This document shows, in pieces, positions 10,898 through 40,441 of a stretch of DNA of 64,000 bases. This stretch comes from a virus: positions 1 through 64,000 of the IMG/VR virus record IMGVR_UViG_3300030333_007705; one strand, 5' to 3'. Position numbers and translations under genes: made by a program. Within the stretch, counting starts at the first letter, position 1. Each line of letters starts with the position of its first letter. The notes below the pieces were generated by a model. The model did not search any database. It saw only the letters and a list, made by a program, of their open reading frames with translations, and was not told where the DNA came from.

Positions 10898-11091
10898 TAT
10901 TTACTCCTAAAACAGCTCAAGCCCCCAGGAAACATGCCTTTCCAGGTGACTGCTCGTTCGGCTGTGTTTTTTTGTTTTTCTAAAGTAACCACCTTTTCTT
11001 CTAGCTCAGCAACTTTTGCTTCCAAAGCTCTTTTCTCTTGTTTAAGCTTTGCAATAATGTTTATTTTTTGCATGATACCGAACTGTTCCAC
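10897..11091 (-). CDS. Small coiled-coil protein
   Basis: Heptad-rich ORF; late-type motif ACTATATA upstream. Confidence 0.5.
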   Translation of the reverse strand: MEQFGIMQKINIIAKLKQEKRALEAKVAELEEKVVTLEKQKNTAERAVTWKGMFPGGLSCFRSK

Positions 11092-11285
11092 AGGTGCATC
11101 CTTTTGTTGTCAGACACTAATATATAGTTTAATTTTAACTATAAGTTCCTATATTGTTAACAGGAGGTTGACATGATTATCTTTACGACGGTGGTAATCG
11201 CCGGAGTGTTGCTAACAAGCCTGACGTGCAGGCTTTTGCTATCTGCACTCATTAATAATTGCATGCCCGCGCCCAAGGAGGCGAA

Positions 11286-11924
11286 ATGAAGAGGTTGATT
11301 GTTGGAGTGACGCTCGCCACAGTCATGCTCATGACCATATGTGGCACGCGCGCAAGCGCGGAAAAAAATTTCCAAACAGGGGACATTATCTTTCAAACCA
11401 CACGAGGCAGATTGGCCACAGTGGTAGCGACAGCGACCCTTTCGAAGTATACACACGTTGGCATGGTTATCGTCAAGAAAGGAAAACCTTACGTAATCGA
11501 AGCCAGGAATCGGGGTGTAAAGATGCGACCATTGCACAAATTCACCGAAGCGGGCTTCGGAAAAAATTTTTCTGTTTTAAGGATCAACTATGGCCTTAGT
11601 GAAGAAGAAAAACGTAAGCTAGCCAATGAAGCCCGTAGCCATTTAGGCAAAAAATATGATAGCAAGTTTCGTTGGGACGATAAAAAGCTTTACTGTTCAG
11701 AGTTGGTGTACAAATCTTACATGAATGCTTTGGGCCTTGAATTGAATACAACCGAGAAATTAGGTGATTTCTATTCTTCTTGGAACCCTATTATCAATGC
11801 TTATGTCGAGAGAAAATATGGAAACAGCAAAAAGCTTCCCTTTGAAGAAGAGGCGATCACTCCCATACGTCTATACAAAAGCGATAAGCTTAAGCTAATT
11901 CACAGCACTTATCTAGTGCCTTAG
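11286..11924 (+). CDS. Secreted YiiX/YebB-like permuted papain-fold (NlpC/P60) amidase
   Basis: Signal peptide; GDIIFQT, YTHVGMV, VIEA, LYCSELVYKSY; SD AAGGAGG. Confidence 0.85.
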   Translation: MKRLIVGVTLATVMLMTICGTRASAEKNFQTGDIIFQTTRGRLATVVATATLSKYTHVGMVIVKKGKPYVIEARNRGVKMRPLHKFTEAGFGKNFSVLRINYGLSEEEKRKLANEARSHLGKKYDSKFRWDDKKLYCSELVYKSYMNALGLELNTTEKLGDFYSSWNPIINAYVERKYGNSKKLPFEEEAITPIRLYKSDKLKLIHSTYLVP

Positions 11925-12742
11925 ACGTTTACGATTTCCTCGTCTTTGTCATCGATAGCATAGTCGATAATAGAATCAGGTTTGGCAAGGAATGCCTTTC
12001 TCATGGAAAGGCCGCTTCCTTCGCCACCTCCGGCACTCAAAACCTCGGCCACAAACGTCGCGCAATTTTCCCCGCCTGCGGCGGGGCCTAAAAAGTTGTA
12101 CGGTTTCATTCGGCCCGTTTTTGAGTTAGCATAGGCGAAAGCGCGTTCGGCGTTAATTCCTCGAACCAAAGCAACCTTCATTTGGCTTTGCCCTGAGTAG
12201 TTTTTAAACTTTCTGTATGCTTTGACGTTAGCTAGGTACTCATCCTGGTTTTTTAAGCTACCATCATAATCCCATATAGCCCTGCCTTTCATTCTCCAAG
12301 GCCCGCGCACGAGGCCGCCACCCTCTTTTAGGTTCGCTTTCGTCTCAGGTTCCTTACCTGTGATCCCTACAGACTGGGCCCCATACAGATACTTGCCAAA
12401 ATCGAAGTAACGTCCTACACCTTTCTTGTCAATTATTACAATCCCAGCGTGCCCCAGGGGGAAGCCCAGTTTATCTGGGATGATCCCTTTCTCACGCGCT
12501 TTGTTGTATATATCCGACTTGGTTGTTTTTGGCATGTTGAACTCGTATTCTGGCCAGGCAATGGCTAGCGCGTTTACCCTCCGCATGTTTGGGTTCTCGA
12601 TTGCCGCTTCCCTAGCTCTCGCCGCATCGGCTTCTGGGTCCTCATCTTTAAACCCAAACGGATCTAGCCACGATCGTTCGCTTAATACGGCCTTGGTCTC
12701 TTCTAATATGATCTGTCTTAGCAAATCTTGACTAATCTTCAT
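11921..12742 (-). CDS. Permuted papain-like peptidase with MKIS-type leader
   Basis: GHAGIVII ... YNFL...ENCATFV (His before Cys); MKISQDLLRQIILEE; CTATTTA upstream. Confidence 0.65.
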   Translation of the reverse strand: MKISQDLLRQIILEETKAVLSERSWLDPFGFKDEDPEADAARAREAAIENPNMRRVNALAIAWPEYEFNMPKTTKSDIYNKAREKGIIPDKLGFPLGHAGIVIIDKKGVGRYFDFGKYLYGAQSVGITGKEPETKANLKEGGGLVRGPWRMKGRAIWDYDGSLKNQDEYLANVKAYRKFKNYSGQSQMKVALVRGINAERAFAYANSKTGRMKPYNFLGPAAGGENCATFVAEVLSAGGGEGSGLSMRKAFLAKPDSIIDYAIDDKDEEIVNV

Positions 12743-13228
12743 GCTTGTAAATAGTTTATACTCTCGCAAATGTTCTTATATTGTTAGTGTGATTATGCAG
12801 TCCTCACCTTACCCTTCCCTAGGGGCCATGTTAACTAACTACAGGAAATCATTATGTTCTGAAAAACTCAAATCTGAAAATTTACCCGCGCAGCGTAAAC
12901 GTATATAGCCCGCATTTGAGCACCCTTTTATTTACAGGGACTTACATTCGGGGATTCTCTATCCCCCCTCCCCCTACCCCCTTGAAATCAAACAGTTTTT
13001 TTGTCAAGAAAATAGTAGATTATTTTGCGCTCAAATGTAACTTAATGTGTGTAAAATATACACACTCTAAGCTGCCAGAATCACTAGGGTTATCTGTCAA
13101 GAGGAAAGATTCACCACTTGTAACTTTGGCTATGCAATACTTGCGGAGTGTGAGTGTGCATATTCGCTACACTCTAACCTCGCGTGATTACTGCACAATA
13201 CGAGTTTAACATATTGAGCAGGTTTTGT

Positions 13229-13456
13229 TCAGGTCGGGGTGTCACTTTTGTCACTCTCCTTAGTGCCATTGACAATATGTGGCCAGCCATCAACGAAGCT
13301 GATCTCTATCTGACCAAGGATATATTTGTCTAAGGCATCGCTCAAAACCGTAGCAATATCAAGGCGATTGGCCTTGGCAAACTCATCTACGAGCCTGTGC
13401 ATCTTGTATTCCGTGAAGTCGATTACGTTGTCATTTTCAATATGCTCCTCTGTCAT
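13229..13456 (-). CDS. Hypothetical protein
   Basis: ORF directly after early-type promoter 13463-13490. Confidence 0.6.
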   Translation of the reverse strand: MTEEHIENDNVIDFTEYKMHRLVDEFAKANRLDIATVLSDALDKYILGQIEISFVDGWPHIVNGTKESDKSDTPT

Positions 13457-13604
13457 ATACACAATATAGGAACCGTCGAAGTAAAGTCTATACTTTGAAC
13501 AGGTAGTGCCTAGACTATATTGTGTGTATTATTTCTACACACTTTGTCACCGCTTCTCGTTGGTGGGTAGGCACCCTGCATCCTGTGGACTGTGCATAGC
13601 CTTA

Positions 13605-13620
13605 TGCAAAATACGTGCCA
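13605..13620 (-). promoter_or_regulatory. sigma54 (-24/-12) promoter
   Basis: Minus strand TGGCACG-TATT-TTGCA is an exact match to TGGCACG-N4-TTGCW and is intergenic. Confidence 0.7.
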
Positions 13621-13645
13621 GGTTGCTGACTTCTACCCAGAAAAC

Positions 13646-13837
13646 TTAGAAGGGTATGTCGTCATCCTCGAAGGGGACTGGAACCATCCATGATGGGATA
13701 CCTCTCTGTAGTAGGCTCTCCATCTGCTTAAAGGCCATTCGTGGGCCTCTTATGGAACCTTTCTTTTGTTTACCATCCTCGATCCAATGGACGCGGTAGA
13801 GGGTCGTCCAGGTGTCTTCTGGGCGTTGACCAAACAT
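13646..13837 (-). CDS. Small hypothetical early protein
   Basis: 63 aa, ends DDDIPF; weak similarity to the adjacent ORF (L..G.P.W). Confidence 0.6.
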   Translation of the reverse strand: MFGQRPEDTWTTLYRVHWIEDGKQKKGSIRGPRMAFKQMESLLQRGIPSWMVPVPFEDDDIPF

Positions 13838-14091
13838 TAGTTTAGTTCCCTCGGCTTCTCTGCGAGGTGCAGGTGTCGTCCTTGGTCATCCTCGACCCAG
13901 ACAGGCCAGCCGGTGGCGAGCCATTGTCGTGCAGTGATCTCGACTTGCTGAAGGTTGGGCGTATCATAGCGCTGGACCCCTCCAGAACCGTCAGGAACGC
14001 ACAGATACCACGTTGTCGCGACTTCCTCTGCCTTTTGGGGTGCAGGGCCTAGAAGGGCGCTTACGAGGGCGCTGAGAGTGTCTCTACTCAT
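13837..14091 (-). CDS. Small hypothetical early protein
   Basis: 84 aa, translationally coupled. Confidence 0.6.
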   Translation of the reverse strand: MSRDTLSALVSALLGPAPQKAEEVATTWYLCVPDGSGGVQRYDTPNLQQVEITARQWLATGWPVWVEDDQGRHLHLAEKPRELN

Positions 14092-14326
14092 TTTCTTTTG
14101 TCTCCTCGACCATGAAGTTCAGGTCGTCTGTCTGGCGTATCCATCGCCAGTGTTTGTCAGGGTCGCTCAGGGCTCTGAGCAGTGCAATCGGTGTGCCCTC
14201 TGGGTGGACACTGTGGCGTCTCGCTACCTTTAGCTCTGTGACCCTCCACAGGGCTCCTTGTTCCCTCACACGGTTCTTCCCGTGCTTGGTCTTGCCTGTG
14301 AGGGTCAGGATGTCTCCTACGTCCAT
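14084..14326 (-). CDS. Small SH3/KOW-like protein
   Basis: MDVGDILTL start. Confidence 0.6.
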   Translation of the reverse strand: MDVGDILTLTGKTKHGKNRVREQGALWRVTELKVARRHSVHPEGTPIALLRALSDPDKHWRWIRQTDDLNFMVEETKENE

Positions 14327-14348
14327 TTTCTTTGTACCCTCGGCCATC

Positions 14349-15182
14349 TTAGAAGGAGGCGCGGAGCATGGCCTTGACGCCATCGGCTCCGAACGAGCGG
14401 GTGAAGTGGTCAGCGAGCTTCACGCGAAGCTGCTTCTCAATCTGACCAACGCGCTGCTTGGTCACGCCAAAGGACTTGGCGCAGCGCTGCTCCTCACCGA
14501 GCAGGTCGTTGATGATGCGACCGCGCAGGATGGCTGCGTGGTTGGGCTTGAGGCCCTCGACAAAGGACGCCAGAGCGCGGGCGATAGCCTCGCTGTTCTG
14601 GGTGCGCTCCATGCGCGTATCCTGGCGAAGCTGCCCGTCAGGGATAATGGTTGCGACGGTGCCACCGTCAGCGGTGAGCGGCTTGTCGAGCGACACTCCA
14701 CGGGAAGCCATCGAGGCGAGACACTCGCGCACGTCATCGGCGTCGAGGTCGAGGTGGGCAGCAATCTGCTCTGGGGTCGCGTCAGCGCCGATGGTCTTCT
14801 GAGCCTTCTGGAGCGAGGACCAGAGCTTCTTGGCAGTGCGGGAGCCGCAGTGCAGCGTACCGGCGTTGGCCTGGACGTGCTCCTGGCACTTGGCAGTCAT
14901 CCACATGCGAGCGTAGGTCGTGAAGGACGCCTGCTTGGTGGCGTCGAACTTGCCAGCGGCGATGATGATGCCCTCGGTCGCACAGGCGAGGAGGTCGTTG
15001 AAGTCAACGCCACGTCGGACGTGCTTCTTGGCGACCTTGTGGGCGAGGCGAATGTTGGCACCGATGAGGCGCTCAAGGGACTTCTCGTCGCCCGTGGACT
15101 GGTAGTCGGCGCAGAGGTCAATCTGCTCGGACTTGCTGAGGATGATGCAGGTGGCGGCGATGGTCGTAAGAAGGTTCGTCAT
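14349..15182 (-). CDS. Phage-encoded sigma70-family (RpoH/sigma32-like) RNA polymerase sigma factor
   Basis: ERLIGANIRLAHKVAKK, DLL...EGIIIAAGKFD..SFTTYARMW (region 2), SLDKPL (region 3), FGVTKQRVGQIEK (region 4); TAKKLWSSL resembles the RpoH box. Confidence 0.9.
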   Translation of the reverse strand: MTNLLTTIAATCIILSKSEQIDLCADYQSTGDEKSLERLIGANIRLAHKVAKKHVRRGVDFNDLLACATEGIIIAAGKFDATKQASFTTYARMWMTAKCQEHVQANAGTLHCGSRTAKKLWSSLQKAQKTIGADATPEQIAAHLDLDADDVRECLASMASRGVSLDKPLTADGGTVATIIPDGQLRQDTRMERTQNSEAIARALASFVEGLKPNHAAILRGRIINDLLGEEQRCAKSFGVTKQRVGQIEKQLRVKLADHFTRSFGADGVKAMLRASF

Positions 15183-15223
15183 GTTGGGTTCTCCAGGGTT
15201 GTTGACGTTGTGCCTATATATAT

Positions 15224-15239
15224 TGCAGGTTCCGTGCCA
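15224..15239 (-). promoter_or_regulatory. sigma54 (-24/-12) promoter of the sigma-factor gene
   Basis: Minus strand TGGCACG-GAAC-CTGCA (GG-N10-GC), about 40 nt upstream of ATG 15182. Confidence 0.7.
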
Positions 15240-15332
15240 ACTTTGGCTTTTCAGCCATTTTTTTTACTTATTGAATGATTCCAGGGGGTTGCAGTCTTCT
15301 CTCTCTCGCCACTCTGGCCAGGAGAGCCTCAA

Positions 15333-15397
15333 GTGCGTACTTGGTTACGCACTTTTGTGTATCTCGTTACACACTAAGTGCGTACTTTTTGACACAC
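15333..15397. promoter_or_regulatory. Three tandem palindromic boxes GTGYGTA-N6-TACRCAC (candidate enhancer/UAS)
   Basis: 15333-15352, 15355-15374, 15378-15397; 22-23 bp periodicity. Confidence 0.65.
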
Positions 15398-15595
15398 CTG
15401 TGCTCGTCGGGCCTTCCGGGCCTTCCGGGCGCAACCCTTGCAGGTGGCGAGGACAGGAGCCCAGTAGCCCACCGCAGACTGTGCCCAATGGACGTTCAGC
15501 TTCCGTCGCTGGCCAGGGGTCACGCAGTAGTCGTCAGCGTCACAGACGCCAATCTCGACGCGCTCAGAGGGATGGATGGGTGCTTGGTTCGTCAT
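15374..15595 (-). CDS. Small Cys-containing early protein
   Basis: GGAGACGACATG start; CxxC; own promoter at 15624-15651. Confidence 0.55.
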   Translation of the reverse strand: MTNQAPIHPSERVEIGVCDADDYCVTPGQRRKLNVHWAQSAVGYWAPVLATCKGCARKARKARRAQVCQKVRT

Positions 15596-15656
15596 GTCGT
15601 CTCCGTGTCTCTCGTACACCTATAAAGTAAGAACCAGAATCGGCCAGACAAGGGGG

Positions 15657-15902
15657 TCATGTCGTTTTTTTGAAAGATTCTTCATCTTTCTTATAACCCT
15701 TTGAAATCACTATGATTTTTGATGCTGGATACCATCTGTCGTACCCATCGGGTAGATAGAGGCTCTCAGGCGGCTGCAACCACCTGACGCGATACCAGCC
15801 ACCCTTATCGACGTTCAGCACCAGCGCTGGCCCTCGTGGTTCATCCGAGAAGGGAGCCCGCAAGCGAACGAGGTCGCCAACTTCAGGCACCGACTCAGCC
15901 AT
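15657..15902 (-). CDS. Small SH3/KOW-like protein
   Basis: EVGDLVRL...YRVRW...IIVIS. Confidence 0.65.
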   Translation of the reverse strand: MAESVPEVGDLVRLRAPFSDEPRGPALVLNVDKGGWYRVRWLQPPESLYLPDGYDRWYPASKIIVISKGYKKDEESFKKTT

Positions 15903-16194
15903 TGATGGCTCTCTGGCGCTTCAGCCAGAGCAGAGCGCGGGACTCAGCAGAGCCGCCCTCGAAGACAGTCGCGCCGCAGAGCGGTCGCTCTTGAGCGTCA
16001 AAATGTCCGCAGATAAAACGGTCGTTGGACCGAGCGATGGCAACCTGTGTGCCGTCACCGAGCCATGCACGACGGAACATTGTGTGCGGCATGTTCCGCG
16101 CAGGGATTCGCACCTGACCGATACGGGGCTTGCCCTCGTTTCGCGCTGCTCGCTTGTGGTCGCCTCGGACTGAAATCTTCTGATTCTTACGCAT
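15895..16194 (-). CDS. Hypothetical early protein
   Basis: AGGAGACGACATG start; promoter at 16223-16250. Confidence 0.6.
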   Translation of the reverse strand: MRKNQKISVRGDHKRAARNEGKPRIGQVRIPARNMPHTMFRRAWLGDGTQVAIARSNDRFICGHFDAQERPLCGATVFEGGSAESRALLWLKRQRAING

Positions 16195-16455
16195 GTCGTC
16201 TCCTTGTCTCTTCGACACCTATACAGTAGGCACGGATTCTCGTGGGTAAAGGGGCGCGAGCAAAAAACTATGCACGCACGAGCAAAAAACTTTCAACCCT
16301 TTGGAATGATTAGGGTTATTGTACCCTCGCGAGAGCCATAAGCCTCGCGGGTCTTGTTCTTCTCGATGGTCGCCGCCACGTCCTCGATGGACCAGCAGCC
16401 AATGCGGGACTGGAATCGCTCCCACTCGCTTGGCTTGTGGAAGATGATTTCCACT

Positions 16456-16680
16456 TTAATCTCCGCAACTTGGGGGGTGTGACCAGTTCGCATACTGCCA
16501 GTCAGAGATGATGCGGGCCTTGCAAAGCTGGTCTGTCCAGTTGTTCCAAGCCTCGGAGCGGGCTGGGATGTCGGGCTCGCCGTCCTGCTCGTGGATATAC
16601 TTAATCAGGGGCATCATCTCTTCTTCAAAGACGCGCACGGCATCTGCGTGCAGCATCACTTTTGGAATGTCTCTCGCCAT
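16456..16680 (-). CDS. Small hypothetical early protein
   Basis: SD GAGGAG; ...AWNNWTDQLCK..ISDWQYANW. Confidence 0.65.
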   Translation of the reverse strand: MARDIPKVMLHADAVRVFEEEMMPLIKYIHEQDGEPDIPARSEAWNNWTDQLCKARIISDWQYANWSHPPSCGD

Positions 16681-16819
16681 TATAGCTCCTCTACTGTGAC
16701 TCTTGCCGTCTCTAACAGGACGTGCCAAGAATCGACTGTGAACTCGATTATCTCCACTCCCCAGAGCGCACACACAGCGATGAGCGCGGCTGCGAGGAGG
16801 AGTCTCCCGATTGTAATCA

Positions 16820-17014
16820 CTAGAACTTGACCTCGACTGAGCCCACGGTCGCGTAGCTATTGCACGCACCGACGAACTTGCTGATGTCGAAGCGCGGGTT
16901 CACGTTCTTCAGCTTGACTGCGAAGTTCATCGCGACCGTGTGACGGGTCTTGCTGTCTTCGATGGTCTTAACAACGTCTGCAATCATTTGGAAATCTTTG
17001 CGGGTCATGTCCAC
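16820..17014 (-). CDS. Small hypothetical early protein
   Basis: MTRKDFQMIAD...NPRFD..KF..AC; promoter at 17035-17062. Confidence 0.7.
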   Translation of the reverse strand: MDMTRKDFQMIADVVKTIEDSKTRHTVAMNFAVKLKNVNPRFDISKFVGACNSYATVGSVEVKF

Positions 17015-17197
17015 TCCTTTGTTGGGACACTTGTAATGTAGGTACGCTCTCGCGCAGGTAAACAGGCACGAGTAAAAAACTTACAAGTGCCTGGAATCTC
17101 TAGTCTTTATCTGAGATGTATTTCATTGTCACGAAGGCAGCTAGCCCCATGAGGGCATACAGGCCCAAGGCTTTGATAATCATCATGGTCCAGTCCA

Positions 17198-18490
17198 TCA
17201 CTCGTCGATTCCGATGATGCGCTCTGAGGTTGCGAAGTATGGTCGCTTGGCGTGGTACGTCGTGGTCATCCACATGCGCTGGCACTTACTGGCCTTGGGC
17301 TTGGGGGCCTCCATGTCCGTCAGGACGATATGACCATCGAAGTTGCGCTGGTTGACGTACTCAGTGGGCGGGTTGAAGTTCGTTCCACCGTACATGTATC
17401 GCTTCTGTGGGTGGCTCTGGCCCTTCTTCCAGACGAACACCTTGTCCTCTGCGACCTGTGTGTCGAAGGGGATGACAGTGAACGTGGCAAGGCCCGCCAA
17501 CTTGTTGAGTTCAGCGTAGAAGGCAGCGAGCATGGAGTCGGACACCGAGCCAGACTGGTCGATGCTGACCGCGATGTTAGCAGTGCGGTTGACCTTGCGA
17601 CCGGGGTGGACGTAGGCGTAGCGACGGTTCAGACGCTTGGGCGTGCTGCGCTTGTTGGCACGCTGCGAGGTCTTGACGAAGTAGCGAAGCACCTTGCGCC
17701 AGTCAACCTTCGAGGTCAGGCGCTCCAGAATCTCACGCTTGCAGGAGGCACCAACGGAGCCCCAGCCCTTGCTAGTGGCCTCGCCTGCTGCATCCTTCAT
17801 AGCTTCCTTCAGTCGCTCCTTGGCAATATCCATCGCTTCCTGCGAGGCTGCGTTGGCCTCGCCCTGTCCCCACTCGTCATGCGAGTCGAACTGGCCTGCG
17901 GCGTCAGGGTCGAATGGTTGGTTGCTGGGAGAGCCAGAGCCGCCGCCCTGACCGTCGCCGTCCTCGTCACCGGGCTCACCTTGCCCACCTTCCTGCTGCT
18001 CCTCGACCTTCTGGATGAGCTTGTCGTAGTACCACTCAGCGGTCTTGTCACCGGGCATGTCCTCGAACATGGGACCACCAGGGATGCAGCACTTCTCAGG
18101 CAGGTTGTCTGCGCCGATATGATAGTTGATGGAGAGGTCCGCTGCGATGTTCCACAGCTTGAACTTCTGCGCCTCCTCTGGAGAGGGCTTGCCGCTGGTC
18201 ATAACGCCAGCGAGTTCGTCAGGCAGGCGGCCAGTGACGTGCTCGAAGACGAGGTGGTAGAACTCGTGGACCAGAACGCCAGTGCGCTGCTTGTCAGTGA
18301 GCGGCTCGAAGAAGTCTGGATTGTAGACCATCTCGAAGTAACCATCCTCGTTGACTCGCACACCAGCGGTCGGGATGGACTTGTTCATCTTCTTCTCGAT
18401 GCGGCGCGACAGCGCGGCGAAGAAGGGCTCCGACTGAAGCAGTCGGTAAACATGGTCATTGAGGTTGAAGTCGGACATTATGTCCTCCAT
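17198..18490 (-). CDS. DUF2201-type metallopeptidase (HEXXH) plus VWA domain protein, MoxR partner
   Basis: VLVHEFYH, WNIAADLSIN, IDQSGSV, GGTNF, VLTD. Confidence 0.85.
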   Translation of the reverse strand: MEDIMSDFNLNDHVYRLLQSEPFFAALSRRIEKKMNKSIPTAGVRVNEDGYFEMVYNPDFFEPLTDKQRTGVLVHEFYHLVFEHVTGRLPDELAGVMTSGKPSPEEAQKFKLWNIAADLSINYHIGADNLPEKCCIPGGPMFEDMPGDKTAEWYYDKLIQKVEEQQEGGQGEPGDEDGDGQGGGSGSPSNQPFDPDAAGQFDSHDEWGQGEANAASQEAMDIAKERLKEAMKDAAGEATSKGWGSVGASCKREILERLTSKVDWRKVLRYFVKTSQRANKRSTPKRLNRRYAYVHPGRKVNRTANIAVSIDQSGSVSDSMLAAFYAELNKLAGLATFTVIPFDTQVAEDKVFVWKKGQSHPQKRYMYGGTNFNPPTEYVNQRNFDGHIVLTDMEAPKPKASKCQRMWMTTTYHAKRPYFATSERIIGIDE

Positions 18491-18776
18491 CGGTCGTCAT
18501 CGGTTACAGAGATAACGTAGGCACCACACCTACAGAGTAAATAAAAAAAGCAGCGAAGGGTCGATTTCTAGCAGAGCGACCGTGCTATCCTGTTTTGGTT
18601 TTTTCTTACATTCCGCACACTTACAGGCAAAAAGTGCGGGTCCATACTCTTGGCTCCATCGTCGCTGCTGGGAGCTTTTATAATAAAATCAATAAGTTAG
18701 TTGTTAGTTCATTTGAAACCTCCGTGATTCCAAAGGGTTGAGGCATCTGCTGGCCATGCCTCCCTGCGCCTGAGTC

Positions 18777-19847
18777 TTAGGACTCGGTGGACTTCCCGGT
18801 CAGGATAGCCACCAGCTTGCCAGACACCGTTTCACCGTTGTCGGCCTGCGTCTTGTGGAACGAGGTGACGTTCTCCGTGTCACCCTTGCCGAGAGCCTGC
18901 CACAGCTTCATCACAGCCTCAGAGGGCAGGGAGACGAAGTAGTTGGCAAGGTTCTTGCACTGCTCCTCGGTCATCTTCTTGTGGAAGACCTCGGTGGACT
19001 CCATCTTCTCAATGAGAGCGCAGTGCTCGTTGATATTGAAGTCGGAGGTCTTATCGACCTTGCCGTCGTCGAGGATCATCTCGACCGTGACCTGCCGCTC
19101 GTAGTTCTTCACGAAGTCGTTGAAGGACACCGCAGCCTCGAAACCGACGAAGCCAGTGGCGAGGTGGAAGATGGCGGGGTTGTGGTCCTCGACACCGAGC
19201 ATCCCAGCGGACGCGAGGCAGTCGTTGAGCCGCTTCCAAGAGCGACGCGAGGGGTAAACCTTGTTGGGCTCATAGTCCTCGTTGTGCTCCAAGTGAGAGC
19301 GGTTCTGGTTCACGAAGTCCCAGACCTCATCAGCCACGTTGCCCTTGGCCCAGGTGAGCCAGTCCTCGGTCGTGGGCTCCACGTCGAAGACGGTCCAGCG
19401 GTCAAGCTCGGCAGGGTCCATCTCGCCCACCTGATACTGCGAGCCATGCTCGCCACCGTTGACGGCAGCGATGATGACAGTATCGGGGTGAAGGTAGTTA
19501 CCGAAAATCTTGCGAGAGTCGGTAAGCTCGAAGATGCCCTGGCGCACCTCTGGAATGGCGCGGTCAACCTCATCGAGGAAGAGGAGGACTGCACGCGAGC
19601 AGGCGTCAGCCAGCCAGTCGGGCGGGCAGAAGGACGTAACGTCGCCATCCGTGCGAGGAAGGCCAACGAGGTCGCCCTCAGTCATCTGTGATGCACGTCG
19701 TTCGACGACGGGCAGGCCCATGTCGCCAGCCACCTGATAGACAAGCTCAGACTTGCCTACGCCGTGACGACCACGGAGCATGAGCGGCTTCTTGACCGCG
19801 AGGACGTGAGGGGCAACAGAAGTAAACGTCTTGAAATCGATAGCCAT
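18777..19847 (-). CDS. MoxR-family AAA+ ATPase
   Basis: Walker A GRHGVGKS, Walker B LLFLDEVDRA, MDPAELDRW, PSRRSW. Confidence 0.9.
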   Translation of the reverse strand: MAIDFKTFTSVAPHVLAVKKPLMLRGRHGVGKSELVYQVAGDMGLPVVERRASQMTEGDLVGLPRTDGDVTSFCPPDWLADACSRAVLLFLDEVDRAIPEVRQGIFELTDSRKIFGNYLHPDTVIIAAVNGGEHGSQYQVGEMDPAELDRWTVFDVEPTTEDWLTWAKGNVADEVWDFVNQNRSHLEHNEDYEPNKVYPSRRSWKRLNDCLASAGMLGVEDHNPAIFHLATGFVGFEAAVSFNDFVKNYERQVTVEMILDDGKVDKTSDFNINEHCALIEKMESTEVFHKKMTEEQCKNLANYFVSLPSEAVMKLWQALGKGDTENVTSFHKTQADNGETVSGKLVAILTGKSTES

Positions 19848-19943
19848 GATAACTCCGTGTCAGGCTAAGAGGGAACATATTTGGTGTCGGGCCTTCCGAC
19901 ATAACTAACGTAGGAACCAGATTGTGCTGGTAAACACTTTTTT

Positions 19944-20594
19944 TTACTTTCGCGACTTTTTGAGCCAACGCTCTTGAATCACTAGGGTTTCTCCTGCGCC
20001 GATAGGCAGGACAGTGTAGGACCGCGAACCCTTGGTTGCGTGCAGGACATTCTGCTCGACATCGACGATGAGCACATCCTGGCCGCGAAGGCTCGGACGT
20101 AGCGGGCTCTGCATCGAGTCTCGAATCGTGACCATCGTACCCACCGCATAGAGAGGGCTCGCCGCTGCATTCGCCATCGCTCGTTGGACGTACTTGTTCT
20201 CAACCATCTTGCGATACAGCTTTTCGGACGGTATGTAGTTGGAATCATTGATGATTCTGTCCGCCGCATCGCTGAAGTAAGGCGGGTTTGCCTTGTAGTA
20301 GTTCGCAGCGAACACCGCCTTGGTGCGCTTCTCAGGAGTCCACGACTCATTCCACGACTTGCGTGCGGCCTGGAAGGCCGGGTCGGAGTTCCTCTCGATG
20401 CGCTGATAGACCTCATGCTGCTTCGCAGTGAGTCGGCCCCACTTCTTGGCAGATTCGAGCAAGGAAGACAGGAAGTTGCGCTCCCAATCCGTCAGCGTCG
20501 AGATTCCTTTCGCAGCCGTCTTCTCAATGCGAGCGACAAGCTCAGGGTTGTTCTGTCGAGGCTGTCGATTGTAGCGTCGTCCGTAGTATCCCAT
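19944..20594 (-). CDS. Early protein with C-terminal SH3/KOW-like domain
   Basis: LTDWERNFLSSL...LTAKQ; YAVGTMVTIR; promoter at 20625-20652. Confidence 0.7.
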   Translation of the reverse strand: MGYYGRRYNRQPRQNNPELVARIEKTAAKGISTLTDWERNFLSSLLESAKKWGRLTAKQHEVYQRIERNSDPAFQAARKSWNESWTPEKRTKAVFAANYYKANPPYFSDAADRIINDSNYIPSEKLYRKMVENKYVQRAMANAAASPLYAVGTMVTIRDSMQSPLRPSLRGQDVLIVDVEQNVLHATKGSRSYTVLPIGAGETLVIQERWLKKSRK

Positions 20595-20653
20595 CGTCGT
20601 CTCCATTGTCCGGGGTACGTGTAAAACATAGGCACGGGTTTCGCTGAGTAAAG

Positions 20654-20783
20654 AAAAAAAGATAACATGGCGTCCAGTCACCACACTGGATCGATGGTTC
20701 AGCTAGCATCGTTTTCCGCCACCCGTATACGCGGGCTTGAACTAAGGGGTCGGTTCAGTATCCGCCACCATGTCATCTTGGTA
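20654..20783 (-). ncRNA. Candidate structured small RNA
   Basis: Own promoter (20789-20816), 14-bp closing stem followed by a U-tract, four internal hairpins, no convincing ORF. Confidence 0.55.
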
Positions 20784-20824
20784 TCTTTAATATAGTTACG
20801 AGAAAAAAGTAGTAAACACCTTGA

Positions 20825-21034
20825 TCAAAGTTTTTCTAAGTCCTCGACAAACATCGAGTCCCAATCCCATCGATCGTTCCACTGGACCCATACCGACCAC
20901 AGTGCCCCGTCGCGTTGGAAACAGGCGGTCGATGCCTCTTCGACCACGATGCCAAGAGCATCAGGGGGAATCTCTCCGTTGTTCCTGTGGACCTCTGGGT
21001 CATCCAGAAGTCTAACCAAATCACCTACTTGCAT
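20825..21034 (-). CDS. SH3/KOW-like cassette protein
   Basis: MQVGDLVRL...GIVV...VQW...EDLEKL. Confidence 0.75.
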   Translation of the reverse strand: MQVGDLVRLLDDPEVHRNNGEIPPDALGIVVEEASTACFQRDGALWSVWVQWNDRWDWDSMFVEDLEKL

Positions 21035-21227
21035 TGACCACCTTCAGAATGTTTGCCGCGTAAAAACCAGCGGGAGTGTATGTATCAACCCACTCGATGT
21101 AGGCTGTGGGTTGTCCGTGTGACGTGGAGCCTGTTTTAAGCACTACGCCAAGATACTTAGAGCCACGACCCAAAGTCTCGGTGGCTGAATAGTGCGACTC
21201 AAATGTAACCAAATCACCGACTTGCAC
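21021..21227 (-). CDS. SH3/KOW-like cassette protein
   Basis: MQVGDLV...VVNASR*, 14-nt overlaps. Confidence 0.75.
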   Translation of the reverse strand: MQVGDLVTFESHYSATETLGRGSKYLGVVLKTGSTSHGQPTAYIEWVDTYTPAGFYAANILKVVNASR

Positions 21228-21396
21228 TGATTATCTCCAACATGCTGTTCACTTCTAGTGTTGGGCCTGGTTCCAGCCGGTCGTCATCAGTTTCGTATGT
21301 CCACTGCACCATGCAGTGTGCGCCTAGACTCTGCACCACTAGACCACAACCCAGCCTGGGAATCTCTTTATGTTTCACTAAGTTACCGACTTTCAC
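21214..21396 (-). CDS. SH3/KOW-like cassette protein
   Basis: MKVGNLV...LEIISASR*. Confidence 0.75.
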   Translation of the reverse strand: MKVGNLVKHKEIPRLGCGLVVQSLGAHCMVQWTYETDDDRLEPGPTLEVNSMLEIISASR

Positions 21397-21553
21397 TGAT
21401 GACCCTCAACTGGCTCTGATACATATCGGCCTCGCCGTTTGGCCACTGGACTGTGGCGCGCTTGTCCAGGCTAGTAGTTCTCAAAATCTTGGCTACGATG
21501 CCCACGCCGTCTGTCTCCCAGCCTTTTTGCACAACCAAGTCACCGACTTGCAC
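21383..21553 (-). CDS. SH3/KOW-like cassette protein
   Basis: GTG start MQVGDLVV...LRVISESR*. Confidence 0.75.
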   Translation of the reverse strand: MQVGDLVVQKGWETDGVGIVAKILRTTSLDKRATVQWPNGEADMYQSQLRVISESR

Positions 21554-21695
21554 TGACGACCTCGCACTGAGATGCAACGAACCAGACCGTGTGTCCGGTG
21601 CTGGTGAGTACCCTCAAGGTGCCGCCAGCGTTTGGCCGAGATAGCACCGTGGCCATCTGTCCATTAAAATATCTAATAATATCACCGACTTTCAA
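21540..21695 (-). CDS. SH3/KOW-like cassette protein (51 aa, not in ORF track)
   Basis: TTG start MKVGDIIRYFNGQMATVL...CEVVSASR*. Confidence 0.7.
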   Translation of the reverse strand: MKVGDIIRYFNGQMATVLSRPNAGGTLRVLTSTGHTVWFVASQCEVVSASR

Positions 21696-21886
21696 CTTAC
21701 CAACTCCAAATCGCCTTCAAGGTAGCGACCAGTCAGGCGACGGGCGTGGTGAGAGATGACACTGACGTGCCAAACCTTAGTGCCCTGAGCGGCTGAAAGC
21801 CACTGCCAAGACATGAGCATCGCAAGTGTGTTTTGTGGCAAGCCGATTGAGGCTCGCTTGATTCTCACTAGATTACCGGGCTGCAC
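21692..21886 (-). CDS. SH3/KOW-like cassette protein
   Basis: MQPGNLVRI...DLELVS*. Confidence 0.7.
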   Translation of the reverse strand: MQPGNLVRIKRASIGLPQNTLAMLMSWQWLSAAQGTKVWHVSVISHHARRLTGRYLEGDLELVS

Positions 21887-22052
21887 TAACTACCTCTGCA
21901 CATCGCTTGAGTTCTCTCATGCTCATCCAAGTTGGGTTCTTGAAGTGAACGTCCTGTGTAACTAATATACGAACGTGATTGTAGTCAGTAAACTCTAAAA
22001 TCAAACCAGTGTAGTTTGTTTCAGGAAACCTAATCAAATCACCTACTTGCAC
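21873..22052 (-). CDS. SH3/KOW-like cassette protein (59 aa, not in ORF track)
   Basis: MQVGDLIRFPETNYTGLILE...AEVVSAAR*. Confidence 0.7.
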   Translation of the reverse strand: MQVGDLIRFPETNYTGLILEFTDYNHVRILVTQDVHFKNPTWMSMRELKRCAEVVSAAR

Positions 22053-36435: not shown

Positions 36436-36525
36436 AAGAGAGGGAATGAGGTGCGCAAGATTTTACACACCTCATTCCTTAACTATCTAAATAAACAGGA
36501 AAAAGTTATTTTTTTTTGAAAAAAT

Positions 36526-36948
36526 TTACTTAATTTCAATGTTTAATGGGCGTGCCTCTTCCTTGCGTGGAAGAACCAACGTAAGAAGCCCGTTATTGAA
36601 CTCTGCTGTAGTATTATTTAGATTGAGATTGTTGTCATAGTTGACATAAGTTTTTGTAAAACTTCGCCTAGCAATCCGACGAGCATCATCATTCTCGCTA
36701 GCGCGGGATGCACTAACAGTGATGGTGTTTTTCTCTGGCTTGATCTCGATAGACAAGTCTTCCTTGGAAAAGCCCGCCAAAGCGAACTCCATAACGGTGT
36801 CACCTGTGTCATTCTGATACAGGTCAGCAACAGGATAACCTTTGGTTGTTCTATTCGTTAGAGCAGAAAAATCCATAGCATCAAACAAATCATCAAAAAC
36901 GCTCCTACCAAGAAGGCTAGGGCGGTAAGTGGCAAGTGTTGTATTCAT
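36526..36948 (-). CDS. Small heat-shock protein Hsp20
   Basis: YPVAD, ALAGFSKEDL, ARRSF, FNNGLLTL. Confidence 0.9.
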   Translation of the reverse strand: MNTTLATYRPSLLGRSVFDDLFDAMDFSALTNRTTKGYPVADLYQNDTGDTVMEFALAGFSKEDLSIEIKPEKNTITVSASRASENDDARRIARRSFTKTYVNYDNNLNLNNTTAEFNNGLLTLVLPRKEEARPLNIEIK

Positions 36949-37994: not shown

Positions 37995-38811
37995 TTAGTT
38001 TGCCTCTCTCTTGTTTAGCTTTTCTGCTATTTGTTCTAATGGGCCAACAACATCAACCATCGTAGGTCCAGCGTTGGAGCGAATCAAGAACAAGCGCGTA
38101 AACTGAGTGTGCTCGCTCAAGCCATCCACCATAGGGGTGGTTCTTGAATTGTAATCTTCGTTAGCCCGGGCAACAATAACATGTTCTGGGTTAACAAGGG
38201 CGCGCCGAAGCGCAAAGTCTGTCTTTACTCGGCCAGCGACGGGATCATATTCTGACGCTGCTGAATATATTTCTGTAAGTTCAATCATCTTTTATCCTGA
38301 AATTTCGTAAACATCTTTTGCCAATACTGTCCAGTGCTGATTCTCATAAATAACACTTAGGATTTTTGGATCAGAGCCAGCCTCAGTCAGCAACAAGTTT
38401 CTTGGCTTTTCAAGTTTCATGTAGGTTTGTATATCTCCGCTTTCACGAAATCTATACAAATAAACCCCCGAGGGTGCATGAACTAAATCGCCTTTCTTAA
38501 ACTTCATCTTCTTGCTCCTCGCCGACTGGAGCCGTAGCTTGTCTCATGTCCTCAGGCAAATCAGGCGCGGACAGCTGCGCAATAACATTGGCGTACCCCT
38601 GGAGCATGCTAGTAACATCCTCAAGTTGACTATCGACGATGGCCAATCCAGATCGAACATGCTCAACAGAATCATTAAAAGCAGGCAAACTGGCTGTGGT
38701 CATGGGCGCTTTTGATAGTTGCGCCAGCCTTCTCCTGATCAGGTGTATTAGTTCATCAATTTTAGCTGGCACCTCATCAAAATCAATAGTGTGCGTAATC
38801 TTAACTTTCAT
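37995..38811 (-). CDS. Three small hypothetical genes (37995-38288, 38292-38507 SH3-like, 38497-38811)
   Basis: Tightly packed ORFs downstream of groEL. Confidence 0.55.
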
Positions 38812-40384
38812 TTTCTATCTCCACAATAGCGTTGTTAGTAGTAATAAGGGTGGAAGCAACAGAGACGGCATTCCTGAGTGCGGTTATGGTAACCTTAGCC
38901 GGATCGATGATTCCTGCTTCCATCATGTCGACAACCTCCCCGCTGGCAAAATTCCAACCGAAGCCTTCTTTCTCTTGTTGTTCCTGAAGCCTGGAGATGA
39001 TCAAGTCTGAGCTTTCCCCCGCGTTCGAAGCCATCTGTCTAATCGGTGCTTCGAGGCTTCTCTTTAATATCTCAGCCCCGAATCTCTGATCTTCGTTTTC
39101 TAATTCAAACTCCAGCTTGCGACAATTCAACAACGTCGATCCGCCGCCGGGGACAATCCCTTGTTCTTGGGCTGCTCGTACTGCCTCCAGCGCATCTTCA
39201 ATACGGTGCTTTTTCTCTGTCATTTCAACTTCCGTTGGAGCACCTACCTTAATTATTGCAACACCACTGTTTAGCCTAGTGATGCGCTCCTGCAGGCGCC
39301 GGCACTCCTCCATGTCTTCTGTTTGCTTTATCTCAGACTTGAGAGACTCTATCCTCTCTTCAATAGCTGGCCAGTCGGAGTTGCCGTCAACAATGGTGGT
39401 GAAATTTTTCATAATCTCAATTCTCTTACATGTACCCAAGTCAACCAGCTTTACGTCACCTAGCTTTTTTCCTGATTCACGAGACACAAAATTAGCTCCG
39501 GTGGCCAGGCAAAGGTCCCTCATGATGTCCCTTCGCTCATTGCCGTATCTAGGAGCCTTGACAGCGGCGACCCTCATTGTGCCACGAACTGCGTTCATAA
39601 TTAACGCTGCCAGGGCTTGACCCTCGACTTCTTCAGCGACAATCACAAAAGGCTTTGCTTCGCGAGAAACAAGCTCTAGAATAGGGAATATATCATTTAC
39701 GTTTTCTATCTTGTGATCTGTAACAAGCATGAGAACATCATCATAATCAACAATGTTTCTTTTTTCATCTGTAACAAACGCTCTAGCAAAATATCCAGAA
39801 TCAAATCTAAAGCCCTCGACAACATCAAGACTTGTTTGTTCGGCCTTGGCTTCTTCGATAGTGATAGCGCCGTCGGCTCCGGCCTGATCGGCAGCAGTGG
39901 CAATGAGTTTACCAATAGAGGCGTCGTTGTTAGCTGAAATTGTTGCAACATGTTCTATCTCTTCGAATGACGAGACGGGCGTGGCCTGATGTTCAATCTC
40001 ATTTACAATTTTCTCTAGCGCGTGGTCCATGCCTCGCTTAAGCTCAATCGGAGAACTGCCGGCAATAATATATTTTTGTGCATTAGCTAGGATGTCTCTT
40101 GCCAGCACTGTAGAGGTAGTCGTGCCGTCCCCTGCAAGTGCGTTGGTTTGCAACGCTGCTTGCTTCAAGACCTCGGCACCCGCGTTCTCAACCGGATCGT
40201 CTAAGTGAACAAAGTTGGCAACAGTGACGCCGTCTTTTGTTATGACGGGGCTTACACCATTTTTATATAAAAGGACGTTTCGTCCGCGTGGGCCGAGCGT
40301 AGCTGCAACGTTGTCAGCCAACTTGTCGACTCCAGCGAGTAGTTTTTCTTGCAAAGCGCGGTCGTGCGCATAGACCTTAGTCAT
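38801..40384 (-). CDS. groEL: Chaperonin GroEL
   Basis: TLGPRGRNV, ITKDGVTVA, AGDGTTT, GIVPGGG, GIIDPAKV; no GGM tail. Confidence 0.95.
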   Translation of the reverse strand: MTKVYAHDRALQEKLLAGVDKLADNVAATLGPRGRNVLLYKNGVSPVITKDGVTVANFVHLDDPVENAGAEVLKQAALQTNALAGDGTTTSTVLARDILANAQKYIIAGSSPIELKRGMDHALEKIVNEIEHQATPVSSFEEIEHVATISANNDASIGKLIATAADQAGADGAITIEEAKAEQTSLDVVEGFRFDSGYFARAFVTDEKRNIVDYDDVLMLVTDHKIENVNDIFPILELVSREAKPFVIVAEEVEGQALAALIMNAVRGTMRVAAVKAPRYGNERRDIMRDLCLATGANFVSRESGKKLGDVKLVDLGTCKRIEIMKNFTTIVDGNSDWPAIEERIESLKSEIKQTEDMEECRRLQERITRLNSGVAIIKVGAPTEVEMTEKKHRIEDALEAVRAAQEQGIVPGGGSTLLNCRKLEFELENEDQRFGAEILKRSLEAPIRQMASNAGESSDLIISRLQEQQEKEGFGWNFASGEVVDMMEAGIIDPAKVTITALRNAVSVASTLITTNNAIVEIENES

Positions 40385-40441
40385 AGATACCTCATTAGTA
40401 TTATAAGTCCAGATTACCACAAGTCAATCTTTTTTTAAAGA

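Follow-up and report, generated by a model that had tools for sequence, protein, structure and literature searches.

A predicted sigma54-type promoter with tandem enhancer-like dyads ahead of a sigma factor gene in an uncultured marine phage, and its counterparts in Myxococcota-type genomes

Enhancer-dependent sigma54 promoters are familiar from bacteria, where the glnAp2/NtrC, nifH/NifA-IHF and Pu/XylR types serve as examples; their core follows the consensus YTGGCACGrNNNTTGCW, with GG at -24 and GC at -12, and a site for integration host factor (IHF) between enhancer and promoter is frequent, though not obligatory. To our knowledge, phage transcription has been described as depending on host sigma70, on phage sigma factors or on phage polymerases, and sigma54 has entered the picture only where phage inhibitors act on it. 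Cyanophage promoters with NtcA boxes couple phage expression to a host physiological regulator, but those boxes are sigma70-class activator sites, whereas at the locus described here a whole alternative-sigma and enhancer system would be borrowed. The locus belongs to an uncultured, marine, lytic-type phage of about 180 kb, represented by IMG/VR record IMGVR_UViG_3300030333_007705 (74,015 bp, completeness estimate 41%), of which the first 64 kb form the stretch analysed (hereafter the window). We hold it probable, with some reserve, that positions 15213-15397 are a promoter of the phage's sigma factor gene that depends on RpoN and an activator of the host, and that this host is most likely a marine member of the Myxococcota.

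Like the bacterial sigma54 promoters, the locus combines a GG/GC box with two to three dyads 100-180 bp upstream, at whole helical turns, and an A/T-rich spacer. Unlike them, it lies on a large phage, would drive a phage sigma gene and has no activator encoded nearby, and it carries a conserved (TA)n stretch at -11 to -1 and, in the window, a weak IHF match. Two systems of Myxococcus xanthus invite closer comparison. At katB/ahpC, the PexR system has three tandem interrupted palindromes (5-N6-5) upstream of a sigma54 promoter (PMC12754779), an arrangement that the phage locus shares ahead of its sigma54-type box; PexR is a Myxococcota enhancer-binding protein, but its site, CACCG-N6-CGGTG, differs from the GTGCGWA-N6-TWCGCAC of the phage. 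The NmpR regulon has the consensus GCGCA-N5-TGCGC and a reported site spacing of 14-15 bp (PMC11841059). The window holds another dyad type; the dyad CGCGCA-N5-TGCGCG of the relative L010/L216 fits the NmpR consensus, although no clear second site was seen there at 14-15 bp. Finally, in phage sigma cascades such as those of SPO1 gp28 and the phiEco32/7-11 sigma (PMC8948821, plus general knowledge), a sigma70-family protein is likewise encoded, here presumably redirecting host polymerase to later genes; the sigma genes of SPO1/phiEco32-type cascades differ in being read from sigma70-type early promoters. A literature search retrieved no report of a sigma54-dependent phage promoter, and one with the half-site strings gave nothing relevant.

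The elements of the locus, with dyad centres counted from the predicted start at G 15213, are as follows:

14349-15182, minus strand: sigma70-family sigma factor gene, 277 amino acids, with Pfam Sigma70_r2 (7e-10) and Sigma70_r3
15213-15223, minus strand: (TA)n stretch ATATATATAGG, about -11 to +1, kept in relatives with 2-bp length variation
15240-15224, minus strand: sigma54-type -24/-12 box TTGGCACGGAACCTGCA, GG at 15238-15237 and GC at 15226-15225
15258-15291, minus strand: A/T-rich tract GGAATCATTCAATAAGTAAAAAAAAT between dyads and box, with a weak IHF-like match
15333-15352: proximal dyad GTGCGTA-ACCAAG-TACGCAC, centre about -130, a perfect match to GTGCGWA-N6-TWCGCAC
15355-15374: middle dyad GTGTGTA-ACGAGA-TACACAA, centre about -152, with a weaker right half, overlapping the stop codon of the upstream open reading frame
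15378-15397: distal dyad GTGTGTC-AAAAAG-TACGCAC, centre about -175, with left half GTGTGTC, within the 3' end of the upstream open reading frame
15374-15595, minus strand: small conserved open reading frame, 73 amino acids, ATG at 15595, no family match

The box begins 57 nt ahead of the ATG of the sigma gene, and within it TGGCACGGAACCTGCA, which the preliminary description had proposed as a -24/-12 promoter, is located at 15224-15239 on the minus strand; as a sequence feature the box is confirmed, and it is conserved at the exact sigma54 spacing. Measured against the consensus, TTGGCACGGAACCTGCA has a single deviation, CTGC for TTGC, and TTGC is present in seven of the eight other aligned relatives. 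The pattern TGGCAC-N5-YTGCW matches twice in the 64 kb against 0.18 expected, a count never reached in shuffles. By the rule that transcription starts about 12 nt past the C of the -12 GC, the start is predicted at G 15213. A small hairpin, TGGCTgaaaAGCCA at 15244-15257, abuts the -24 element upstream; in relatives its position is taken by TGCCcaaaaTGGCA. Elsewhere in the window there is another sigma54-type sequence:

13605-13620, minus strand: another sequence that fits the sigma54 consensus perfectly, TGGCACGTATTTTGCA, within an intergenic gap of 183 nt

This second box has no dyad upstream and is missing in the complete relative G001 and 31 other relatives, and it was rejected as a conserved element.

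Relatives were collected through the sigma protein alone, so that the collection is unbiased for the DNA motif. All nine relatives from IMG/VR, at sigma protein identities of 44-78%, have the box, and across 75 box-aligned bases TTGGCAC and TGCA are the sole invariant blocks, at fixed spacing; the intervening five bases are variable, and the flanking sequence is diverged. A mismatch-free box occurs exactly once in the complete genome G003 and once in G005, each time at the sigma locus, while G001 has the sigma-locus box and one other match, and in G012 a less strict pattern matches once. Because the box is near-unique in each genome, it does not represent a general phage promoter class; the ordinary promoters of the phage have the form TTTACN-N16-TAYNNT. 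That the resemblance to sigma54 promoters arose by chance and is without function is very improbable, for although short motifs do arise randomly, nothing more speaks for it, and it is opposed by the conservation of the box amid diverged flanks, by the shuffle statistics and by a co-occurring 20-bp perfect dyad.

Another alternative is an ordinary sigma70-type promoter, in which TTGGCA would be the -35 element, TATATA or TATAGG the -10 element and the dyads repressor operators. TTGGCA is indeed near TTGACA and is followed by a TA-rich hexamer, but the spacer to TATATA is 12-14 bp, instead of the 16-18 bp of sigma70-type promoters, and the distance to TATAGG varies among relatives, from 16 bp here to 14 bp in L010. 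A consensus promoter scan for the sigma70 type did not call the box, the phage's own promoters use N16 and TAYNNT, and nothing would account for TGCA being invariant. We regard this alternative as improbable.

Upstream of the box, the three phased palindromes of the form GTGYGTA-N6-TACRCAC that had been described earlier are borne out, with a dyad-to-dyad spacing of 22-23 bp; the TGT-N10-ACA pointed out in the middle one is also present, as a trivial consequence of the dyad sequence. Sites for AAA+ enhancer-binding proteins are expected about 80-200 bp upstream of sigma54 promoters, and all three dyads fall in this range and may serve as such. In G001 and L014-L016 the homologous middle site is likewise degenerate. 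Related dyads are found 40-190 bp ahead of the box in G001, L011, L012, L014-16, L152, L154, L191, L221 and L222, and the form GTGCGWA-N6-TWCGCAC is found at this distance in most close relatives. Strict dyads are not scattered through the phage genomes. The window has looser dyads at 13047 and 13522, without an upstream box, and a dyad at 36451 was rejected as a regulatory site because it forms the stem of a terminator-like hairpin that follows an Hsp20-like gene. Some relatives carry other dyad types at the enhancer place, namely CGCGCA-N5-TGCGCG in L010/L216, where a perfect GCGCAATAAATGCGC stands about 115-125 bp ahead of the box, and CGCTAC-N7-GTAGCG in L185, L217 and L227.

The stretch between dyads and box had been described as an IHF-like site. 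The A/T-rich tract is there, but the IHF match is poor, the best fit to WATCAANNNNTTR in the window reaching 7/9, a value equalled in 220 of 500 shuffles. Among relatives, the matches rise to 9/9 in L010, L011 and L085 and to 8/9 in L012, L015 and L016, at fixed distances from the box.

Cellular counterparts of the dyad-plus-box arrangement point to a candidate host phylum. The preliminary description had suggested looking for the palindrome near sigma54 promoters of candidate hosts, and a scan of one genome per species (185,579 species) with GTGCGWA-N6-TWCGCAC-N65-95-TGGCAC-N5-TTGC matched 38 loci, against about 0.5 estimated to occur by chance, an estimate not raised by G+C bias. All 38 are chromosomal, have a G+C content of 54-76% and lie upstream of cellular genes. 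Most carry the labels Myxococcota, Deltaproteobacteria, Bradymonadia or Anaeromyxobacter; four bins with odd names (Rickettsiales or Enterobacterales) place within the same phylum sample, as does every scan match that could be placed. In this sample the pattern occurs in 13 of 401 genomes and a reversed-pattern control in 0 of 401. In Myxococcota-type genomes GTGCGWA-N6-TWCGCAC stands 52-95 bp before sigma54 boxes; five host-type genomes have one or two strict dyads each, and in six of the seven a sigma54 box follows at 52-93 bp, among them one locus that had played no part in the selection. The guess of a myxobacterial host made in the preliminary description is thereby backed by dyad-plus-box loci in 38 genomes of one phylum.

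Judged by their N-terminal sequences, the genes downstream of these bacterial loci encode a protein of about 60 amino acids, CDP-alcohol phosphatidyltransferase-like and diacylglycerol-kinase-like proteins and, in one case, a CoA-transferase-subunit-like protein. The conserved protein of about 60 amino acids matches no Pfam family and has the motif ..NRNRxxARSFYRQLRxEGFTHEQIIELSxTLLDLVTEDL.. (loci L040-L076). By their shared dyad and sigma54 box, L040-L076 apparently make up an undescribed Myxococcota-type regulon. In three syntenic loci two enhancer-binding proteins are encoded 2.4-5 kb upstream, one of FHA-AAA+-HTH_8 type and the other a short AAA+-HTH_8 protein, and RpoN was found in all five matching genomes tested. 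On the viral side, no Sigma54_activat domain was found in G000, in G001 or in 39 of 44 other box-bearing viral records, and no RpoN DNA-binding domain in G000. As no activator of the phage's own was found, the simplest assumption is that the promoter would rely on an enhancer-binding protein of the host. An AAA_5 ATPase (18777-19847) and a DUF2201/VWA protein (17198-18490) were considered as an enhancer-binding protein and rejected, as they form a MoxR-type pair. Because the dyad type is that of a regulon restricted, among the scanned genomes, to Myxococcota-type ones, the host is most likely a marine member of the Myxococcota. Recent derivation of the phage sigma from the candidate hosts was rejected, given an identity of 24-32% to their sigma factors.

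It is also conceivable, if unlikely, that the promoter is a true sigma54 promoter whose dyads are bound by a phage regulator or by an activator from another phylum, in which case the host assignment would be wrong. The large gap in G+C content between phage and Myxococcota would fit such a binder, as would the two looser dyads without a box in the window, the other dyad types in relatives and the low sensitivity of the strict scan (13 of 401), owing to which small phyla sharing the regulator may have been missed. Against it, the 38 genome matches share both dyad and box distance and all placeable ones fall in one phylum sample, with no match among tens of thousands of species from other phyla; the strict dyad is nearly confined to sigma54 upstream regions in the matching genomes, and the dyad at 36451 of the window is accounted for as a terminator-like stem.

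Similar boxes occur in other viruses, where the extended motif TTGGCAC-N6-TGCAWTATATA was found in 63 viral contigs. Four loci, L147 (G043:5500-11500), L148 (G045:28000-35000), L149 (G018) and L150 (G013), have four to six sigma54-type boxes within 2.5-4.5 kb. Some of the clustered boxes form divergent pairs, 120-200 bp apart, that enclose TTGCAAAATGCAA or GTAGCAAAATGCTAC repeats and stand ahead of small genes; we take the TTGCAAAATGCAA-type repeats to resemble NtrC/LuxO-type enhancer sites. Further phages have various other dyads 100-160 bp ahead of their boxes. To judge from these sequences, use of sigma54-type promoters may recur among large phages.

The same contigs raise the alternative that TTGGCAC-N6-TGCAWTATATA-GG is a phage-specific promoter that merely resembles sigma54 promoters and is read by a phage factor, an unrecognised sigma or polymerase, with the dyads as operators. 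Beyond the bases of the sigma54 consensus the motif continues with a conserved (TA)n-GG, and this, together with its recurrence in 63 contigs, sometimes as four to six clustered copies, speaks for such a factor. Yet the invariant bases are exactly the GG and GC of sigma54 at exactly its spacing, the family of the phage described here has one copy per genome, and the complete genomes G043 and G018, which bear box clusters, have neither a Sigma70_r2 hit nor an activator domain. The divergent pairs with presumably enhancer-like TTGCAAAATGCAA repeats, and the presence of the dyad-plus-box module in cellular genomes, are likewise at odds with a phage-specific factor, which we consider doubtful, slightly more so than a binder from outside the Myxococcota.

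A further input to the sigma gene is suggested by a promoter of the phage's ordinary class, TTTACN-N16-TAYNNT, farther upstream:

15651-15624, minus strand: sigma70-type promoter TTGTCT-N16-TACTTT, upstream of the small open reading frame

The small open reading frame is kept in G001 and in box-less relatives, and no minus-strand terminator was found between it and the sigma gene. In six of the nine relatives (L010-12, L014-16) a sigma70-type promoter stands between the box and the sigma gene, directly before the gene. It had been stated that the sigma gene lacks a promoter of the TTTAC type. This is true of 15183-15373, but not of the region farther up, from which transcription could continue into the gene; the sigma54-type promoter would therefore be an extra input and not an exclusive gate.

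Several observations weigh against a host-dependent sigma54 promoter and a Myxococcota host. First, the sigma70-type promoter about 410 bp farther up can also feed the sigma gene. Second, the box is less general in metagenomes than in the IMG/VR set: of 51 distinct metagenomic loci with enough upstream sequence, 22 have it, and three more have TGGCAT variants, within 600-1000 nt of the sigma gene, and in the remaining relatives the homologous position is taken up by an extended -10 module of the sigma70 type. The conservation that the preliminary description had made a test of its proposal thus holds for the nine IMG/VR relatives and fails for about half of the metagenomic ones. Third, the (TA)n-GG that follows the -12 element, conserved here and recurrent in the 63 viral contigs, is atypical of cellular sigma54 promoters, and the IHF match in the window is at chance level. 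Fourth, the phage has a G+C content of 38-46% against 54-76% at the matching bacterial loci, an unusually large gap between phage and host; the strict pattern picks up no more than about 3% of the genomes of the phylum; and the sigma protein, at 24-32% identity to the sigma factors of candidate hosts, adds no independent host signal. Finally, the support comes from sequence analysis throughout, and none of it is experimental.

With either the box or a sigma70-type module at the homologous position, promoter class has been exchanged between lineages at a single locus. In box-less L158, L164, L170, L173, L186, L195 and L230, that position has an inverted repeat, CCCATTGATATCA-N25-TGATATCAATGGG, and behind it a promoter of the extended -10 kind, TGGTATGCT or TGGTATACT. 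The IHF-like element forms one arm of this repeat in relatives that have no box, so its assignment to IHF is uncertain, and it may instead be a site for a phage regulator.

The mechanism we favour would proceed as follows. The stretch 15213-15397 would act as an enhancer-dependent sigma54 promoter carried on the phage, and the host's RNA polymerase, carrying RpoN of the host, would form a closed complex at the -24/-12 box. The three dyads share one face of the helix, at about -130 to -175; there an AAA+ enhancer-binding protein of the host would assemble and loop to the polymerase over the A/T-rich, possibly bent spacer. ATP would then be used to open the (TA)n region, transcription would begin near G 15213, and the transcript would encode the phage's own sigma70-family factor. 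This host-signal-dependent input would join that of the upstream sigma70-type promoter. The phage thus probably reads a host signalling pathway. Of the gating of the sigma gene by a host pathway, as first proposed, the sigma54 and enhancer architecture and its conservation stand, but gating by this pathway alone does not, in view of the sigma70-type promoter upstream. That the protein is a 'master' sigma factor, that it answers to one particular signal and that it serves as a lysis/dormancy switch is speculation.

The sigma protein itself is assignable, by its sequence, to the sigma70 family only. NCBIfam models for RpoH, RpoD and RpoS each score about 90 bits on it, far under their cut-offs; the rpoH_proteo score of 95.8 bits compares with a cut-off of 323.1, which places the protein outside the RpoH (sigma32) family, and since the RpoD and RpoS models score alike, the earlier label 'RpoH-like' is weak. 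Hundreds of homologues occur in marine metagenomes, and a protein atlas look-up returned generic sigma clusters only. An Hsp20-like gene (36526-36948, called by eye from its translation) and a GroEL gene (38801-40420, PHROG match) accompany this stress-sigma-like factor in the window.

Nearly all genes of the window are on the minus strand, and their products include a DnaE-type polymerase, DnaB, ribonucleotide reductase, GroEL and the MoxR/VWA pair, along with three tRNAs. Complete relatives measure 180-190 kb; G001 has 180,711 bp, of which the supposed 'terminal repeat' is an assembly overlap of 77 nt. The locus had no blastn match in cultured phages, and tblastn with the sigma protein and the DnaE-type polymerase gave distant matches only, at about 30%, which provide neither a cultured relative nor a host hint. 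The G+C content is 56-59% near the sigma gene (14000-20000) and 39-47% across most other parts of the record. A non-coding stretch of 459 nt (12770-13228) contains a G-rich block, GGGGGTAGGGGGAGGGGGG, and two oddly spaced GTGTGTA/TACACAC dyads; it has no Rfam match, nor did the Rfam scan of 11000-22000 give any, and its G-rich part is kept in G001 (L001, about 2360-2480).

On a wider scale we offer, tentatively and at somewhat less than even confidence, the hypothesis that a widespread marine phage family of about 180 kb infects planktonic Myxococcota and, by copying the enhancer sites of its hosts, ties its own sigma gene to their sigma54 and enhancer-binding-protein signalling, that its lineages swap enhancer type (GTGCG dyads, the NmpR-like GCGCA-N5-TGCGC, or CGCTAC-N7-GTAGCG) and promoter class to read different pathways, and that other large phages use such promoters in clusters, so that sigma54-dependent transcription would be a strategy that recurs among phages and has hitherto escaped notice. 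If the host-dependent promoter is real, a transcript of the phage needs an active, specific signalling protein of the host, which would link host physiology directly to the phage programme. Regulatory DNA alone could then assign hosts to uncultured phages, and here this reasoning leads from an abundant family of uncultured marine phages to the Myxococcota. The comparison also defines what appears to be a previously undescribed regulon in that phylum, with GTGCGWA-N6-TWCGCAC ahead of genes for a 60-amino-acid protein and, to judge from N-terminal sequences, enzymes like those of lipid metabolism.

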